Shown here: in pieces, positions 24,687 to 27,652 of the stretch
How positions within the stretch are numbered: position 1 is the first letter of the stretch
Layout of the letters: the number at the start of each line of letters is the position of its first letter
Assembly (NCBI GenBank): GCA_046292385.1
Contig: JBKBRF010000003.1
Location: forward strand, 138,855 to 178,220
Origin: Armatimonadota bacterium
Lineage (GTDB): Bacteria > Armatimonadota > SYMT01
Direction of reading: 5' to 3'
DNA length: 39,366 nt
Translations under genes and position numbers: made by a program
Notes under the pieces: generated by a model
What the model was told of the DNA's origin: nothing
The model's input: only the letters and a program-made list of their open reading frames with translations
Databases searched by the model: none

Positions 24687-26027
24687 ATGCAGGCACAGGG
24701 CAGCGACATCGAATTCGTGCTGAAGAGCGCGCGAGAGAACAACGTCCGGTTCATCCGCCTCTGGTTCACCGATATCCTGGGCTTTCCGAAAAGCGTGGCC
24801 GTGACGCTGGCGCAGCTCGAAGACTCCCTGGAGAACGGCGTCAGCTTCGACGGCTCCTCCATCCAGGGCTTCGCGCGGCGGCAGGAAAGCGACATGCGCG
24901 CCCGCCCCGATCCGTCGACCTTCCAGCTCCTCCCGTGGCGCCGGGGCGAGCAGGGGACGGTGGCGGCGATGTTCTGCGACATCGTGAAGCCGGACGGCGC
25001 GCCGTACGAGGGCGATCCCCGCTGGGTGCTCCGCCGGACCCTGGAGCGGGCCGCGCGCCACGGCTACACCTTCTACGTGGGCCCGGAACTGGAGTTCTTC
25101 TACTTCCGCAGCTCCCGCGGCGCCCCGGAGACGCTGGACGAGGGCGGTTACTTCGACCTCACCCCCCAGGACATCGCCACCGACATCCGCCGCGACACCA
25201 TCCTGACGCTGGAGGAGATGGGGATCGACGTCGACTTCAGCCACCACGAGGGGGCGCACAGCCAGCACGAGATCGACCTCCGGTACGCCGACGCGCTGAC
25301 GATGGCGGACAACACGATGACGTTCCGCCTGGTGGTGAAGGAGATCGCGCAGAAGCACGGGGTCTTCGCCAGTTTCATGCCGAAGCCGCTGGGCAACCAG
25401 AACGGCAGCAGCATGCACACCAACACCTCGCTGTTCCAGGGCAGCCGGAATCTCTTCTTCGACCCGGAAGATCCGCAGAACCTGTCGCAGCTCGCCCGCC
25501 AGTACACCGCCGGCCTGCTGCGCCACGTGCCGGAGATCACGCTGGTGCTGAACCAGTGGGTCAACTCCTACAAGCGGCTGGTGCCGGGCTACGAGGCGCC
25601 GACCTACGTCTCCTGGGCCTTCCAGAACCGCTCCGACCTGATCCGGGTGCCGGCCTATCAGCGGGGCCGCGAGGATTCGGTCCGCATCGAGCTGCGCTCG
25701 CCCGACGCGGCGTGCAACCCGTACCTCGCCTTCGCCTGCATCCTCTCGGCCGGGATGGAAGGGATCGAGAACGAGTACGAGCTGCCGCCGCCGATGGAGG
25801 AGGACGTCGCCGAGATGACCCCGGAGGAGCGCGCCGGGCTGGGCATCGCCAGCCTGCCGGAGGACCTCCACGCCGCCATCGAGCGCGCCGAGGGGAGCGA
25901 CTTCCTGCGGCGGACGCTCGGCGATCACGTCTTTACCAACCTGATCCTGAACAAGCGGCGCGAGTGGAACCGGTTCCGGGCGTACGTGACGGATTTCGAG
26001 CTGCAGGAGTATCTCCCGATCCTTTAG
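24687..26027 (+). CDS. glnA: Glutamine synthetase type I
   Basis: FDGSSI, GPELEFF, HHE, QHEI, FMPKP...NGSSMH, SYKRLVPGYEAP, NRS, RIELRSPD.ACNPYL. Confidence 0.95.
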   Translation: MQAQGSDIEFVLKSARENNVRFIRLWFTDILGFPKSVAVTLAQLEDSLENGVSFDGSSIQGFARRQESDMRARPDPSTFQLLPWRRGEQGTVAAMFCDIVKPDGAPYEGDPRWVLRRTLERAARHGYTFYVGPELEFFYFRSSRGAPETLDEGGYFDLTPQDIATDIRRDTILTLEEMGIDVDFSHHEGAHSQHEIDLRYADALTMADNTMTFRLVVKEIAQKHGVFASFMPKPLGNQNGSSMHTNTSLFQGSRNLFFDPEDPQNLSQLARQYTAGLLRHVPEITLVLNQWVNSYKRLVPGYEAPTYVSWAFQNRSDLIRVPAYQRGREDSVRIELRSPDAACNPYLAFACILSAGMEGIENEYELPPPMEEDVAEMTPEERAGLGIASLPEDLHAAIERAEGSDFLRRTLGDHVFTNLILNKRREWNRFRAYVTDFELQEYLPIL

Positions 26028-26120
26028 CTTCGCGCGATGAGTGCCTCGAACGCTAACATCCATAGAGGGGAGGGCGCCGGCATCCGGGCGGGCTCGTGCC
26101 GCGCTTCGGTCGGTCGCGTT

Positions 26121-26218
26121 CGTCCCGAGGGTCCCACCCCGCGCCCTTGTGCGGGTGGTTTCACTTACTCGCCGCACAGCAGCGTCCGTCCCGAGGGTCC
26201 CACCCCGCGCCCTTGTGC
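26121..26218 (+). repeat. 32-bp exact direct repeat
   Basis: CGTCCCGAGGGTCCCACCCCGCGCCCTTGTGC at 26121-26152 and 26187-26218. Confidence 0.9.
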
Positions 26219-26772
26219 CGGGAGGCAGCCCTCCCGCGACGGGTGCCCTCCGCGGCCTTTTCACGCTCCGGCTGCGCCTCCGCTAGCAGGCCGCTCCGGG
26301 AGCTCATCTCGCTTCGCTCTTCCCGCGCCACTGCCGGGATCGCACCCCCAGCCCAGTTCACGGGCTGCCTCCCGGCCCTTCGAGCGAACCCCCCTGCGCC
26401 CAGGGGGGTTCACAAGTGGCACCCTGCGGGCGCCCTGGTTTCTGGCTGATTCCGAGCCGGATCCGTCTCCTCAGTCCCGGTTAGCGGTACCCGTCAGCCG
26501 CCTGAGCCGAGGAGCCTGGAGGCGCTGCCGAAGGCAGAGCCGGAGGGCTTCCCTTGTGACCACCCCTGGCGAGGGGTGGTTGCTTGAGCCGGACGGGGCG
26601 GCCCGTGAATCGCAGTCCCGGAGCAACCGCAGCCTGCGAACGCGGAGCACAGGCTTTCGCCGCGCACGCCCGGAGCAGTCCGCTAGCCCGAAGGGCGTGA
26701 AAGGACTGCGGGAGGGCCAGCGTCGCGTGAGGGCCGTTCCGCCCGGTGAGGGCACAGGGTGGACTCTCGGGG
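26187..26772. ncRNA. Candidate structured RNA/ssDNA element: two diverged inverted ~260-nt units with covarying stems
   Basis: Reverse complement of 26187-26450 aligns by eye with 26503-26772; three homologous stems differ by compensatory changes (see findings). Family unknown. Confidence 0.55.
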
Positions 26773-26847
26773 AGATGCCGCTCCCTGGGGAGAGATCGCA
26801 GTTATCCGCTGTCCGCGCGGCGCACAGAAGCCGAAGAGCCTGACCGC

Positions 26848-27522
26848 ATGCAGCGCATCCTCATCATCACGGATAACGCCAAGAACGCCGCCCCCTGGCA
26901 GCAGGAGCTGATCCGGGCCGGCTACCCGGTCACCTGTACCAGCTCCGACCGGCGCCAGCTCCACGAGTCGTTCAACCCACGGCCGGCGGAGGTGTTCATC
27001 CTGGACGGGACCTCCGTGCGCACCTCGCCGAAGGAGCTGCGGGAGCTGCTGGAGCTGGAGTGTCCGGAGCACGAGTCGTGCCTGATCTGGCTGGTCACGC
27101 AGGAAGTGGCGGCCCGGCTCGACCCGGCCTGCGGGATCGATGACTTCATCATCCTCCCGTCGAGCGCGCACGAGCTCCTCGCGCGGGTGCGCCTGCACCT
27201 CTGGAAGAGCCACAAGGTCTCCGGGACCGACCTGATCGTGGCCGGGGGGCTGGTGATCGACCAGGGCAACTACAGCGTCTCGCTCGACGGGCGCTCCCTG
27301 AACCTTACCTTTAAGGAATACGAGCTGCTCCGCTTCCTGGTGAGCCACCGCGGTCGGGTCTTCACGCGGGAAGCGCTGCTCAACCAGGTGTGGGGCTACG
27401 ACTACTACGGCGGCATCCGCACGGTCGACGTCCACATCCGCCGCATCCGCGCCAAGCTCGGGCCGGAGCACGAGGAGCTGGTCGAGACGCTCCGCAACGT
27501 CGGCTACCGGTTCAACGGGTAG
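26848..27522 (+). CDS. glnR: OmpR-family orphan response regulator, actinobacterial GlnR-like
   Basis: Winged helix LTFKEYELL..L..H.GRVFTR..LL..VWGYDY.GG.RTVDVH.RR.RAKLGPEHE....T.RNVGYRF closely follows Streptomyces/Mycobacterium GlnR; divergent receiver domain; next to glnA. Confidence 0.7.
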   Translation: MQRILIITDNAKNAAPWQQELIRAGYPVTCTSSDRRQLHESFNPRPAEVFILDGTSVRTSPKELRELLELECPEHESCLIWLVTQEVAARLDPACGIDDFIILPSSAHELLARVRLHLWKSHKVSGTDLIVAGGLVIDQGNYSVSLDGRSLNLTFKEYELLRFLVSHRGRVFTREALLNQVWGYDYYGGIRTVDVHIRRIRAKLGPEHEELVETLRNVGYRFNG

Positions 27523-27552
27523 CGGTGCGCGGTGAACCGCGCGGGTTGGCTC

Positions 27553-27652
27553 CGCCGGGAGTCAACTCCCGGCGATCGTGGTTGAGGCGCCGGGTTCGTG
27601 ATCTCCGGGAGTTGACTCCCGGAGCGCCAAACGCGGGCAGTTGACTGCCCGC
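27553..27652. repeat. Three REP-like palindromes sharing an AGT(TG/CA)ACT core
   Basis: CGCCGGGAGT-CA-ACTCCCGGCG 27553-27574; CTCCGGGAGT-TG-ACTCCCGGAG 27603-27624; GCGGGCAGT-TG-ACTGCCCGC 27633-27652. Confidence 0.8.

Follow-up and report, generated by a model that had tools for sequence, protein, structure and literature searches.

The window (the whole 39,366-nt stretch of Armatimonadota DNA that was analysed) carries a head-to-head pair of ~300-nt non-coding units, which fills the gap between glnA and the gene for an OmpR-type, GlnR-like regulator at 26166-26796 (Table 1). The regulator scored 21.3 bits against GlnR_1st, under the 27-bit cut-off. Its start is most likely the ATG at 26848, judged from the sequence and its alignment with the gene start in relatives, and this places the end of the repeat ~60 nt upstream of it rather than the 75 nt given for the right copy in an earlier, sequence-only reading. 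The two inverted structured units which that reading had described between the genes are real: the reverse complement of 26187-26450 is colinear with 26503-26772, with a column identity of 76% in the alignment. Their location stood, whereas the proposed limits of 26187..26772 were too narrow, the repeated stretch running slightly further by copy coverage (~26170-26790). All of the stems listed at the time were found where they had been placed, the 15-bp and 11-bp pairs being perfect inverted repeats (I5 and I17), and its three stem pairs correspond to helices P5, P3 and P2 of the family-wide consensus fold.

The two units of the doublet belong to two different sub-families; A and B units share homology in their outer tails. 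Copy coverage was 80-119 within the units versus ~25-29 in the central spacer, which is common only to doublets of the same sub-family. A second locus (C2:76294-76922) matches the whole 600 nt of the glnA doublet, spacer included, at 82%; the glnA-type pair has been copied together with its spacer as one whole. The extra copy of the left unit's outer end motif (direct repeat D1) is 95% identical to 26182-26221. No open reading frame was found in the unit, which has no coding capacity. Rfam 15 gave no match at the gathering score over the whole window, and two chance-level matches at E up to 10; the sequence-only reading had seen no hallmark of tRNA, SRP, RNase P, tmRNA or group II intron domain V.

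Table 1 Features of the doublet and its neighbours (positions in the window)
Feature	Position	Strand	Basis
glnA (glutamine synthetase), left neighbour, outside element	24687..26027	+	Pfam Gln-synt_C E = 1e-122; Gln-synt_N
Extra 40-nt copy of left unit's outer (3') end motif	26116..26155	-	direct repeat D1
Left unit, A-type, short head	26166..26466	-	alignment A2 row L001:1637-1937:-
Left-unit nhmmer core	26193-26429	-	match C3:165047-165283(-), model 30-263
Left-unit long-range helix P3	26217-26231/26362-26376	-	perfect 15-bp inverted repeat I5
Left-unit helix P5	26252-58/26288-94	-	sequence; A2 helices 7 and 8
Left-unit hairpin P2	26386..26411 (26386-96/26401-11)	-	perfect 11-bp inverted repeat I17
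Central spacer between the two unit heads	26467..26502	.	copy coverage, C2 match
Right unit, B-type, long head	26503..26796	+	A2 row L001:1974-2267:+
Right-unit 5' hairpin P1	26511..26551	+	minimum-energy and centroid folds
Right-unit nhmmer core	26512-26770	+	match C3:165366-165624(+), model 2-264
Right-unit hairpin P2	26559..26580 (26559-67/26572-80)	+	sequence, fold, covariation
Right-unit long-range helix P3	26594-26604/26731-26741	+	sequence; same helix as left-unit P3
Right-unit helix P5	26675-81/26703-09	+	sequence, fold, covariation
Right-unit inner hairpin within P5, GCCC-GAA-GGGC triloop	26686-26696	+	
Right-unit 3' tail hairpin	26768..26787	+	fold; coverage drops to 1.6 past ~26786
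OmpR-type GlnR-like regulator, right neighbour, outside element	26848..27522	+	Pfam Trans_reg_C E = 1.3e-26

Copies of the unit and their fold

The element has no specific tie to glnA or GlnR and belongs to a family with at least 127 units dispersed through the source genome, where nhmmer returned 150 matches, 127 of them near full length. A pattern built on a 23-base motif matched this genome exactly 89 times (reversed control, 0) and had no match in 400 other genomes of the phylum. The units occupy 117 loci, of which 84 hold single units that are intact, with well-defined heads, unlike ends and no second arm. Grouped units are almost all head to head: there were 31 '-+' groups (27 with both units >200 nt), one partial '+-' and one partial '++', and the gaps between paired heads cluster at 28-34 and 72-95 nt. 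Based on gene positions from a crude GC3-based gene caller, ~90% of the loci are intergenic, convergent gene ends among them, and unit orientation relative to neighbouring genes is random, with no significant gene-strand bias; at C40, five units lie antisense in the tight gaps of a co-directional gene row.

Copies are strongly diverged, with a mean pairwise identity of 0.66 and a median nearest-neighbour identity of 0.82. No pair is >95% identical, and there is thus no sign of recent movement. Singles were as well preserved as doublet units, both in canonical pairing (96.4% versus 97.1% of 39 pairs, p = 0.37) and in nhmmer score (165.8 versus 170.9, p = 0.57). Relative to the sign of GC skew, singles split 44 versus 29 (Fisher p = 0.10), in a 91-contig assembly with a mean absolute skew of only 0.017. 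No enzyme or gene family was enriched among 416 proteins flanking the units; the commonest families there are large ordinary paralogue families (for example, 9/64 and 7/57, with ~9.5% expected).

Each unit consists of a 5' hairpin, hairpin P2, a 13-bp helix P3 that closes a multi-branch core (P5 plus a variable hairpin) and a tail hairpin, the last present in other B-type copies as well. In the right unit, P1 ends in a C-GAA-G triloop at 26529-26533, and the same hairpin occurs with GNA triloops in other rows of alignment A2. Within P5 of the left unit lie GCTAGC, an inner hairpin and GCGTGAAA. Pairs changed on both sides made up 8/13 in P3 (A2 columns 126-138/293-305 for the left unit; 10/13 in other genera), 7/9 in P2 (A2 helix 2) and 5/8 in P5. 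The unpaired motifs between helices are near invariant across genera (TGTGA, CGTGAA, GCTAGC, GCGTGAAA, GCGGAGGGC, CGCGGGAGGGC and AGGGCGCGGGG). An extra long-range CUUGUG/CACAAG pairing, suggested by minimum-energy folds, was rejected since it had no covariation support by eye in the A2 rows.

Covariation was assessed in alignments of 49 copies from the source genome and 24 copies from other genomes. In the source genome, 97.3% of 2196 cells were paired, compared to 36-49% with partners slid, and 20 of 45 pairs had changed on both sides; in other genomes the corresponding values were 92.4% of 1007 cells, 38-51% and 25 of 45 pairs. None of 500 shuffles reached as high a value in either set. Despite their mean identity, 115 of the 127 units keep at least 90% of the 39 consensus pairs. 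Among changes private to single copies, double changes kept the pair in 164/176 cases, single changes stayed canonical in 52/97 (30.9 expected), and private substitutions affected 3.3% of paired versus 7.1% of unpaired columns. This strong covariation, in the source genome and in other genera, bears out the earlier claim that structure has been selected in each unit, unlike in a decaying MITE inverted repeat.

The fold is also specific to one strand. Among 4919 cells, G.T occurred 286 times versus 30 times for A.C, which indicates folding of a single strand (the minus strand in the left unit, the plus strand in the right), just as had been proposed from G-U pairs. Folded as RNA, the right unit on the plus strand (z = -3.50, 0/200 shuffles as good) and the left unit on the minus strand (z = -3.54, 0/100 shuffles as good) each folded better than their shuffles, versus z = -1.90 (7/200 shuffles as good) for the right-unit antisense; sense and antisense energies were -164.7 versus -144.1 and -154.2 versus -118.7 kcal/mol. 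Folds with DNA parameters gave z = -1.71, -3.02 and -3.11, with no separation from the RNA folds. Hairpins with a C-GNA-G triloop, a type that is exceptionally stable in DNA, numbered 165 on the sense and 13 on the antisense strand of the 127 units.

Relatives, insertion sites and candidate enzymes

We searched 41 genomes, 40 of them relatives, with covariance model R1 (plus re-runs), a kind of search that the sequence-only reading had suggested. Diverged units were found only in G005 (15) and G006 (8), which represent two other genera of the same family; out of several thousand first-look candidates in each genome, 43-150 were scored, so that a unit not found is not the same as a unit absent. 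This applies equally to G001, a member of the same genus as G006, in which no R1 match was obtained among the candidates scored. The '-+' geometry with a ~30-nt gap is present in G005 too. One true unit was found in a metagenome contig, and none of nine unit-bearing stretches (from G005, G006 and this contig) shared its flanking genes across genomes or with the source genome. The single pattern match among genome contigs, in a Polyangiales MAG (L057), was discarded as chance, only the 40-nt pattern itself matching. Plasmids and phages (blastn) and viral contigs (pattern search) gave no match, and no description of such an element was found in the full-text literature, subscription journals being outside the scope of the search.

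The spacer between glnA and the regulator is ~10-125 nt in five relatives (G003, G004, G005, G006 and G007) versus 820 nt in the source genome, from which it follows that the glnA copy is an insertion: the doublet has been inserted in the source lineage only. The earlier proposal of a new multi-stem non-coding RNA or ssDNA mobile element is thereby strengthened on the side of mobility. Conversely, G005 carries a doublet in a spacer whose syntenic counterpart in the source genome is 155 nt long and empty. In a comparison of source C55 with G005 for an orthologous empty site, the spacers were too diverged to align. Flank pairs of the 117 loci, compared with the source genome in a search for paralogous empty sites, matched only flanks that are other repeats, and yielded no exact boundary. 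Contigs from four metagenome runs in four studies contain the glnA locus with an intact junction and 0-1 differences. The metagenome contigs listed over 25400-27600 either end at the borders of the repeat or span the central spacer, and among the joints listed from the four runs none skips the insertion.

Ends are sharpest in a long sub-family of 20 bounded copies, which has fixed asymmetric ends and no terminal inverted repeat, and are less sharply defined in other sub-families. The bounded copies fall into size classes of 400-416 nt with one unit (6 copies) and 789-821 nt with two units (10 copies), the remaining four being 548-888 nt. By eye, no target duplication was seen at any of the 20. 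Their left flanks end in C in 18/20 cases, with a preceding T in 14/20, bases that may belong to the target or to the element. None of the LE...RE pairs bounds a coding segment or spans >888 nt.

The sequence-only reading had suggested looking for a linked transposase, reverse transcriptase or nuclease at other copies; no linked enzyme was found. The source genome encodes five Y1/HUH proteins, two IS200-like and three RAYT-like, and RAYT-like genes also occur in G005 and G006; G001 and G002, which yielded no unit, have them too. No R1 match with E <0.06 was present in 13 loci of Y1, RAYT-like or IS110 genes. At C40 and C83 the RAYT-like genes have a different REP on their flanks, an IS200-like gene is flanked by its own small hairpins, and the ends of the two IS200-like tnpA genes are unrelated to the units. 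The source genome, which is 98% complete, has no reverse transcriptase candidate (PF00078), and none of its 23 candidates contains a TnpB domain (PF07282). IS110 genes (PF01548) number two in the source genome, none in G005 and one in G006, and none adjoins a unit. A search for Y2/IS91 transposases gave no match, and neither did its control anywhere. Lastly, guide-like matching of the variable hairpin to its own flanks scored 6.79 versus 6.96 for the control (91/125 units delimitable).

Explanations for the family

We tentatively favour, with somewhat less than even confidence, a non-autonomous mobile element made of ~300-nt structured modules and copied via a folded single strand. The family, to all appearances a kind of mobile DNA that has not been described before, combines multi-copy spread, lineage-specific insertion, a strand-specific conserved fold, no coding capacity and, in one sub-family, fixed asymmetric ends. 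Selection would preserve the fold of the module because, we propose, the element is recognised and copied in that form. A trans-acting, single-strand-specific enzyme of HUH/Y1 type would excise the folded top strand and re-insert it as ssDNA, as has been proposed for REPINs and for IS200/IS605-derived miniature elements, and modules may move singly or as inverted pairs. Both the ssDNA intermediate and the enzyme are what we infer from several hints: sense-strand C-GNA-G triloops, the '-+' bias, asymmetric ends without duplication, C-ending left flanks and the Y1/HUH genes of the source genome. The lack of reverse transcriptase, TnpB, coding LE...RE segments and flanking enzyme enrichment in turn points to a non-autonomous element. 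Against ssDNA and an HUH enzyme stand the lack of a linked enzyme, the unrelated repeats beside the RAYT-like and IS200-like genes, the RAYT-like genes in genomes where no unit was found, the absence of a clear replication-strand bias, DNA-parameter folds that do not stand apart from the RNA folds and the lack of any sign of recent movement. To our knowledge, no ssDNA transposon end approaches the complexity of a 270-nt multi-junction fold with a long-range helix and invariant junction motifs, and such an architecture looks more like a functional RNA.

It is a substantial possibility, if still short of probable, that the conserved fold is that of a ~270-300-nt transcript, borne by the element and serving it or the host as scaffold, guide, ribozyme or regulator, while trans machinery spreads the DNA; head-to-head pairs would then be divergently transcribed twins. 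Covarying helices with invariant unpaired junctions across genera are the usual signature of functional RNA, G-U use is strong and strand-specific, and the copy numbers in G005 and G006 are low and more like those of a gene family. The '-+' geometry is moreover the only one that fits outward transcription from a shared centre. On the other hand, 25950-26950 contains no promoter-like site and a single terminator-like site, which falls beyond the units; singles show no conservation in their 5' flanks, and only 28-34 nt separate the heads of some pairs. Random orientation relative to genes, including the five antisense units at C40, also speaks against a transcript, as do the missing partner protein (no TnpB or reverse transcriptase, and IS110 missing from G005) and the variable hairpin without guide-like flank matches. 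Private substitutions that are half as frequent in paired columns, private double changes that mostly still pair and singles as intact as doublet units count for an RNA; the compensated changes could reflect selection acting on copies at rest, something not predicted for a purely selfish ssDNA element, but the private-branch signal can also come from the loss of most sister copies.

That the units are host-adopted architectural or RNA-stability elements like REP/BIME, with ancient and now negligible mobility, is improbable; folded copies would protect transcripts, end transcription or bind nucleoid proteins. This would suit the intergenic loci with their convergent gene ends, the fold kept in old copies of which no pair exceeds 95% identity, and the near-identical glnA junction in four metagenome runs, but a single folding strand combined with random gene orientation leaves half of the copies in the wrong sense in a read-through mRNA, there are no T-tracts for termination, the junction motifs and the 13-bp long-range helix go unexplained, and the family is too patchily spread across close genera for a core host function to be likely. 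A conventional MITE moved by double-strand cut and paste, with units as long terminal inverted repeats and incidental internal stems, is largely refuted already and very improbable. Doublets do form long imperfect inverted repeats with homologous outer tails, yet most loci are single with no second arm, the bounded copies lack target duplications, identity between the arms of one doublet is only 76%, and neither compensation inside each arm nor the 10:1 excess of G.T over A.C is predicted by double-stranded recognition. For practical purposes we also consider refuted a cis-regulatory, riboswitch-like leader of the GlnR-like gene or glnA: the right unit does lie sense-upstream of the regulator, ~60 nt from its start, but at least 127 units sit beside unrelated genes in either orientation and the orthologous spacer is without the element in five relatives, including the family carriers G005 and G006.

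A further reading, which we hold to be rather unlikely, is a self-contained mobile structured module undescribed in bacteria, a ~300-nt multi-junction fold with invariant junction nucleotides, whose folded strand is recognised by a trans factor, which spreads singly or as mirror twins, and of which >100 resting copies are kept by selection for a working role in place. If true, this would make it the bacterial equivalent of structured repeats of the Alu type, or else a new transposon-borne RNA class. The fold implies an unrecognised partner, be it a transposase acting on single strands or a protein that binds RNA or is guided by it, and such partners have repeatedly proved useful (TnpB, IscB and IS110). 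The family also provides 150 natural variants of a single fold on which structural work can draw, and it breaks short-read assemblies of this Armatimonadota lineage. At the glnA locus, the 820-nt separation of glnA and the regulator may have altered expression of the pair.

Comparison with known systems

TnpB/IscB omega-RNA (Rfam HEARO and relatives) and IS110 bridge RNA are ~200-300-nt multi-stem non-coding folds with conserved junctions that are element-borne, multi-copy and sometimes without a protein gene, and in this they resemble the unit; TnpB guide RNAs are the subject of PMC10690162. Unlike omega-RNA, however, the unit has no Rfam match and its genome no TnpB domain, and unlike for bridge RNA, the recombinase is absent from G005, never adjoins a unit and is accompanied by no flank complementarity. 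Retrons, group II introns and SINE-like retroelements differ in that the source genome has no reverse transcriptase.

Correia/NEMIS, ERIC, BOX and RUP elements (Delihas 2011, PMC3184786) are likewise intergenic, multi-copy, foldable and non-autonomous, but each is either a mosaic of short boxes or a MITE-like element bounded by terminal inverted repeats and target duplications. REPINs (Bertels and Rainey 2011, PMC3116915) too are extragenic, non-coding and lineage-dispersed without a transposase of their own, and are found either singly or as inverted doublets around a short spacer, foldable in ssDNA or mRNA. A REP is a palindrome of ~20-40 nt, compared to a unit of ~265-300 nt with at least five helices including a long-range one, and REP singlets are more decayed than doublets, whereas single units are as intact as doublet units; IS608 (IS200/IS605 family) is described in the same paper. 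As in REP-RAYT systems, inverted doublets are over-represented with set spacing and RAYT-like HUH genes are present in the source genome, but the repeat beside these genes is a different REP and never the unit family, whose copies are far more diverged than REPINs.

The bounded sub-family shares further features with IS200/IS605 elements, namely no terminal inverted repeats, no target duplication, unlike ends with sub-terminal hairpins, structure confined to one strand and, ahead of the left end, a largely conserved base. IS200/IS605 elements and their miniature derivatives (PATEs) are moved as ssDNA by Y1 TnpA. In contrast to such derivatives, the units have no full-length, same-ended relative with Y1 TnpA, the tnpA ends of the source genome being unrelated, and their structured core is much larger than any TnpA recognition hairpin known to us. 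Nor do we know of a Correia/NEMIS, ERIC, BOX or RUP element with a covarying, long-range multi-junction fold of this size. The bacterial interspersed repeats that we are aware of are short palindromes or inverted-repeat MITEs, and a 300-nt element conserved in fold rather than sequence, in >100 diverged copies and across genera, lies outside these known repeat types.

Fold of the glnA–regulator copy

The repeated structured sequence that the sequence-only reading described between glnA and the GlnR-like regulator gene (26187–26772) was confirmed on re-reading the bases, and its interpretation as a candidate new multi-stem non-coding RNA or single-stranded DNA (ssDNA) mobile element was supported. 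The reverse complement of the left stretch is colinear with the right stretch (76% column identity), the left-copy stems of 15 bp and 11 bp are perfect inverted repeats (I5 and I17) and the remaining stems were verified base by base. As RNA, the right unit folds on the plus strand at −164.7 kcal/mol (z = −3.50; 0 of 200 dinucleotide shuffles as good) and its antisense at −144.1 kcal/mol (z = −1.90; 7 of 200), and the left unit folds on the minus strand with z = −3.54 (0 of 100). No known family was found in Rfam 15, which gave zero matches at the gathering score over the whole window and two, both at chance level, at E values up to 10 between 25950 and 26900.

Using 49 units from 30 loci of the source genome (alignment A2), RNAalifold predicted a consensus of 45 pairs, with 97.3% of 2196 cells paired (36–49% when slid), compensatory double changes in 20 of the 45 pairs and 0 of 500 shuffles as high, figures to be read knowing that related copies are non-independent. 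The 24 units from other genomes (alignment A3), which were fitted to the model's structure, had 92.4% of 1007 cells paired (38–51% when slid), 25 of 45 pairs changed on both sides and likewise 0 of 500 shuffles as high. Double changes in A2 fall in the P2 hairpin (7 of 9 pairs), the long-range P3 helix (8 of 13) and P5 together with the hairpin it encloses (5 of 8); these helices, the best supported by covariation, are exactly the three stems picked out earlier. Some copies have entire hairpins swapped for unrelated yet self-complementary sequence (for example, A2 rows L009 and L015). Near-invariant motifs lie between the A2 helices (TGTGA, CGTGAA, GGCGCGGGAAG, GCTAGC, GCGTGAAA, GCGGAGGGC, CGCGGGAGGGC and AGGGCGCGGGG), and three 3-bp mini-helices, in which covariation was never seen, are predicted only.

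Across 39 consensus pairs in 127 units (4919 cells), 91.5% of cells are Watson–Crick, and the excess of G.T (286) over A.C (30) identifies the model strand as the folded one, bearing out the strands previously proposed (left unit minus, right unit plus). The RNA energy gap between sense and antisense was 20 and 35 kcal/mol for the two units tested. C-GNA-G triloop hairpins, which are exceptionally stable in DNA, number 165 in sense and 13 in antisense, and this excess is only a hint of a DNA fold. With DNA parameters the folds reached z = −1.71, −3.02 and −3.11, and fold energies do not tell RNA and DNA apart.

A dispersed family and its boundaries

In the source genome (G000; 7.04 Mb, 91 contigs, 68.9% G+C), we found 80 matches to a query spanning 26030–26850 and 150 matches by iterated nhmmer, 127 of which span model positions from at most 45 to at least 255. 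Of the 117 loci formed by the nhmmer matches, 84 hold a single unit (45 on the plus and 39 on the minus strand), 31 are '−+' groups (both units >200 nt in 27), and there is one partial '+−' and one partial '++'. Pairs are thus always head to head with 3′ tails outward, and their gaps cluster at 28–34 nt and 72–95 nt according to head type; the window's left unit belongs to the short-head sub-family (A-type) and its right unit to the long-head one (B-type). Because one other doublet matches the entire window doublet, spacer included, doublets must have been copied as wholes; the central spacer is common to only ~25 of them. By our crude gene call, ~90% of loci are intergenic and single units show no orientation preference toward either neighbouring gene. 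Loci cluster on contigs C8 (12 versus 2.6 expected) and C40 (8 versus 1.0). The eight C40 units, within 26 kb, are all on the minus strand regardless of neighbouring gene direction, five of them placed antisense within the narrow gaps of a row of co-directional genes; being only 65–84% alike, they are not a recent local duplication.

The glnA–regulator spacer measures 820 nt here and ~12, ~125, ~57, ~22 and ~23 nt in G003 to G007, respectively, genomes of the same family that include carriers of the element, so the window copy is a lineage-specific insertion. Contigs of four metagenome runs (four studies) bridge the A–spacer–B junction with 0–1 differences and no joint skipping the insertion was among the joints listed for these runs, so the locus looks fixed in the sampled populations. 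As a lineage-specific insertion belonging to a dispersed family, the copy was rejected as a glnA or GlnR control element, and the window pair is almost certainly a doublet from a mobile, non-autonomous family whose members are structured non-coding modules. If glnA and the GlnR-like gene are co-transcribed, the insertion adds one folded sense unit and one antisense unit to the transcript. A solitary copy of the left unit's 3′-terminal motif lies 27 nt outside that unit and other short terminal fragments occur elsewhere in G000 as partial nhmmer matches; these could be left over from insertions that were abortive or nested.

A 23-base pattern built from two invariant motifs had 89 matches in G000 (reversed control, 0), none in 400 other genomes of the phylum and, over 185,579 species genomes, matched in one place with no similarity beyond the pattern itself. 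One contig of a metagenome collection carries a true diverged unit (pattern match; 109.5 bits), and viral contigs, plasmids and phages gave no match. A covariance model of the unit (R1; 299 positions) detected 15 units in G005 and 8 in G006, genomes that represent two further genera of G000's taxonomic family; among 43–150 first-look candidates scored per genome, it found none in G001–G004 and G007 or in 33 genomes from other families of the phylum. G001 and G006 belong to one genus. In G005, '−+' pairs have gaps of 30–31 nt, and one doublet occupies a syntenic spacer whose G000 counterpart (155 nt) is empty; no conserved gene context surrounds the units of G005, G006 and G000.

In most units a tail hairpin comes before the end, which lies ~30–35 nt beyond the core. 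The members of one sub-family are longer and have sharp boundaries: the left end opens with ...TGTACTACTCACCG and includes a sub-terminal hairpin of 8 bp, and the right end closes with ...GCATCAGCCGCGCTGTG. The two ends have no inverted-repeat relation, and no target duplication is visible. The 20 elements of this sub-family comprise ten of 789–821 nt (two units), six of 400–416 nt (one unit) and four outside these ranges (548–888 nt). The 400-nt form arose by deletion, its B-unit head being fused to the last ~50 nt of the left end, and has itself multiplied (copies 84–89% pairwise identical). Left flanks have a final C in 18 of 20 elements and a T before that position in 14 of 20. No end pair in G000 encloses more than 888 nt, and the assembly contains no autonomous copy. 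Arrays of 7-nt units (CAGGTTG / AACCTGC type) adjoin the left end of several of these elements and may be a preferred landing site.

Coordinates of the element, its fragments and associated features (unprefixed positions refer to the window; C, contig; L, locus)
Feature	Genome	Position	Remark
Gap, glnA to GlnR-like gene	G000	26028–26847	10–125 nt in five relatives
Solitary terminal motif	G000	26116–26155	40 nt
Left unit	G000	26166–26466	minus
Repeated stretch	G000	~26170–26790	by copy coverage
Right unit	G000	26503–26796	plus
Doublet matching window	G000	C2:76294–76922	82%
Minus-strand run	G000	C40:13671–39998	
Same-strand run	G005	C3:830640–836894	
Same-strand runs	G006	C236, C47	
7-nt arrays, left flanks of 400-nt elements (examples)	G000	C14:58839–58900; C37:6800–6900; C16:77300–77361	
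7-nt array, empty syntenic spacer	G000	C55:5990–6100	
IS200-like TnpA gene	G000	C51:25905–26330 (L043:1486–1911)	141 aa
RAYT-like (HUH/Y1) genes	G000	C40:61900–62940; C83:9670–10395 (L045/L087; L046/L082)	mutually 65% identical
REP-like repeat abutting element (example)	G000	C2:197800–198760	

Selection and propagation

Mean pairwise identity among the 127 units is 0.66 (nearest neighbour median 0.82, maximum 0.95), 115 of them retain 90% or more of the 39 consensus pairs and single units are as intact as doublet units. Copy-private substitutions, defined as differences from the three nearest neighbours where these agree, affect 3.3% of paired versus 7.1% of unpaired sites. For 273 private changes at ancestrally paired positions, the partner also changed in 176, with the pair kept in 164; where it was unchanged (97), 52 results were canonical versus 30.9 expected from the unpaired-site spectrum. 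These numbers fit selection on structure in resting copies. They also fit a loss of most sister copies, by which 'private' branches would include time in the active lineage, and the overall 2.7% of non-canonical cells, close to what neutral change of a few percent after insertion would produce, leaves room for that reading. The strand-specific fold must have a role in propagation or in function.

Candidate enzymes in G000 include two IS200-like Y1 transposase genes, three RAYT-like genes and two IS110-type genes; neither a TnpB domain nor a reverse transcriptase was found there. The C51 TnpA gene has its own 23-nt hairpin (GCGAGGGGTT-GAAAA-CCCCTCGC type) on both sides in inverted orientation, an arrangement suggestive of a small IS200 or RAYT unit that carries a REP of its own. 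A REP-like repeat distinct from the element (core ...TGTGGAGTGCG..GCTTGC...) forms inverted pairs on the flanks of each of two RAYT-like genes and also abuts some element copies. R1 units were absent near Y1, RAYT-like and IS110 genes at 13 loci (G000, G001, G002, G005 and G006), and RAYT-like genes occur in five of seven family genomes, among them G001 and G002, in which R1 detected no unit. Among 416 flanking proteins no family is enriched beside the loci, and those that recur are large ordinary paralogue families, found at close to background frequency.

Ends in one sub-family are asymmetric and lack a duplication, doublets are inverted and GNA triloops are present; together with the presence of HUH genes and the lack of a reverse transcriptase, this suggests that the element might move as folded ssDNA through a trans-acting HUH/Y1-type enzyme, by REPIN- or IS200/IS605-like logic. 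We hold this account tentatively, at somewhat below even probability, since enzyme linkage is missing, units show no clear replication-strand bias in G000 and the fold is so complex. The conserved fold could instead be that of an element-borne RNA, to which the junction architecture with invariant motifs, the possible selection in place and the low copy number in sister genera would point; yet we found no conserved promoter or terminator and no partner protein or guide-like feature, and placement is random or antisense, leaving this explanation plausible but doubtful. REP-like host roles or something unforeseen are unlikely and account for the remainder.

Relation to known systems

Classical MITEs, omega-RNAs and bridge RNAs were each rejected on a defining test, as were retroelements, given the absence of reverse transcriptase from G000. 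One sub-family has the end architecture of the IS200/IS605 type; its cognate TnpA was not found. Full-text literature searches turned up no published description of such an element. The nearest known system is REPIN/RAYT, which the element resembles in its extragenic placement and inverted doublets but from which it differs in unit size, singlet decay and RAYT adjacency. Among the structured interspersed repeats of bacteria, the element, whose acting nucleic acid and enzyme are putative, stands as a new and unusually elaborate variant.
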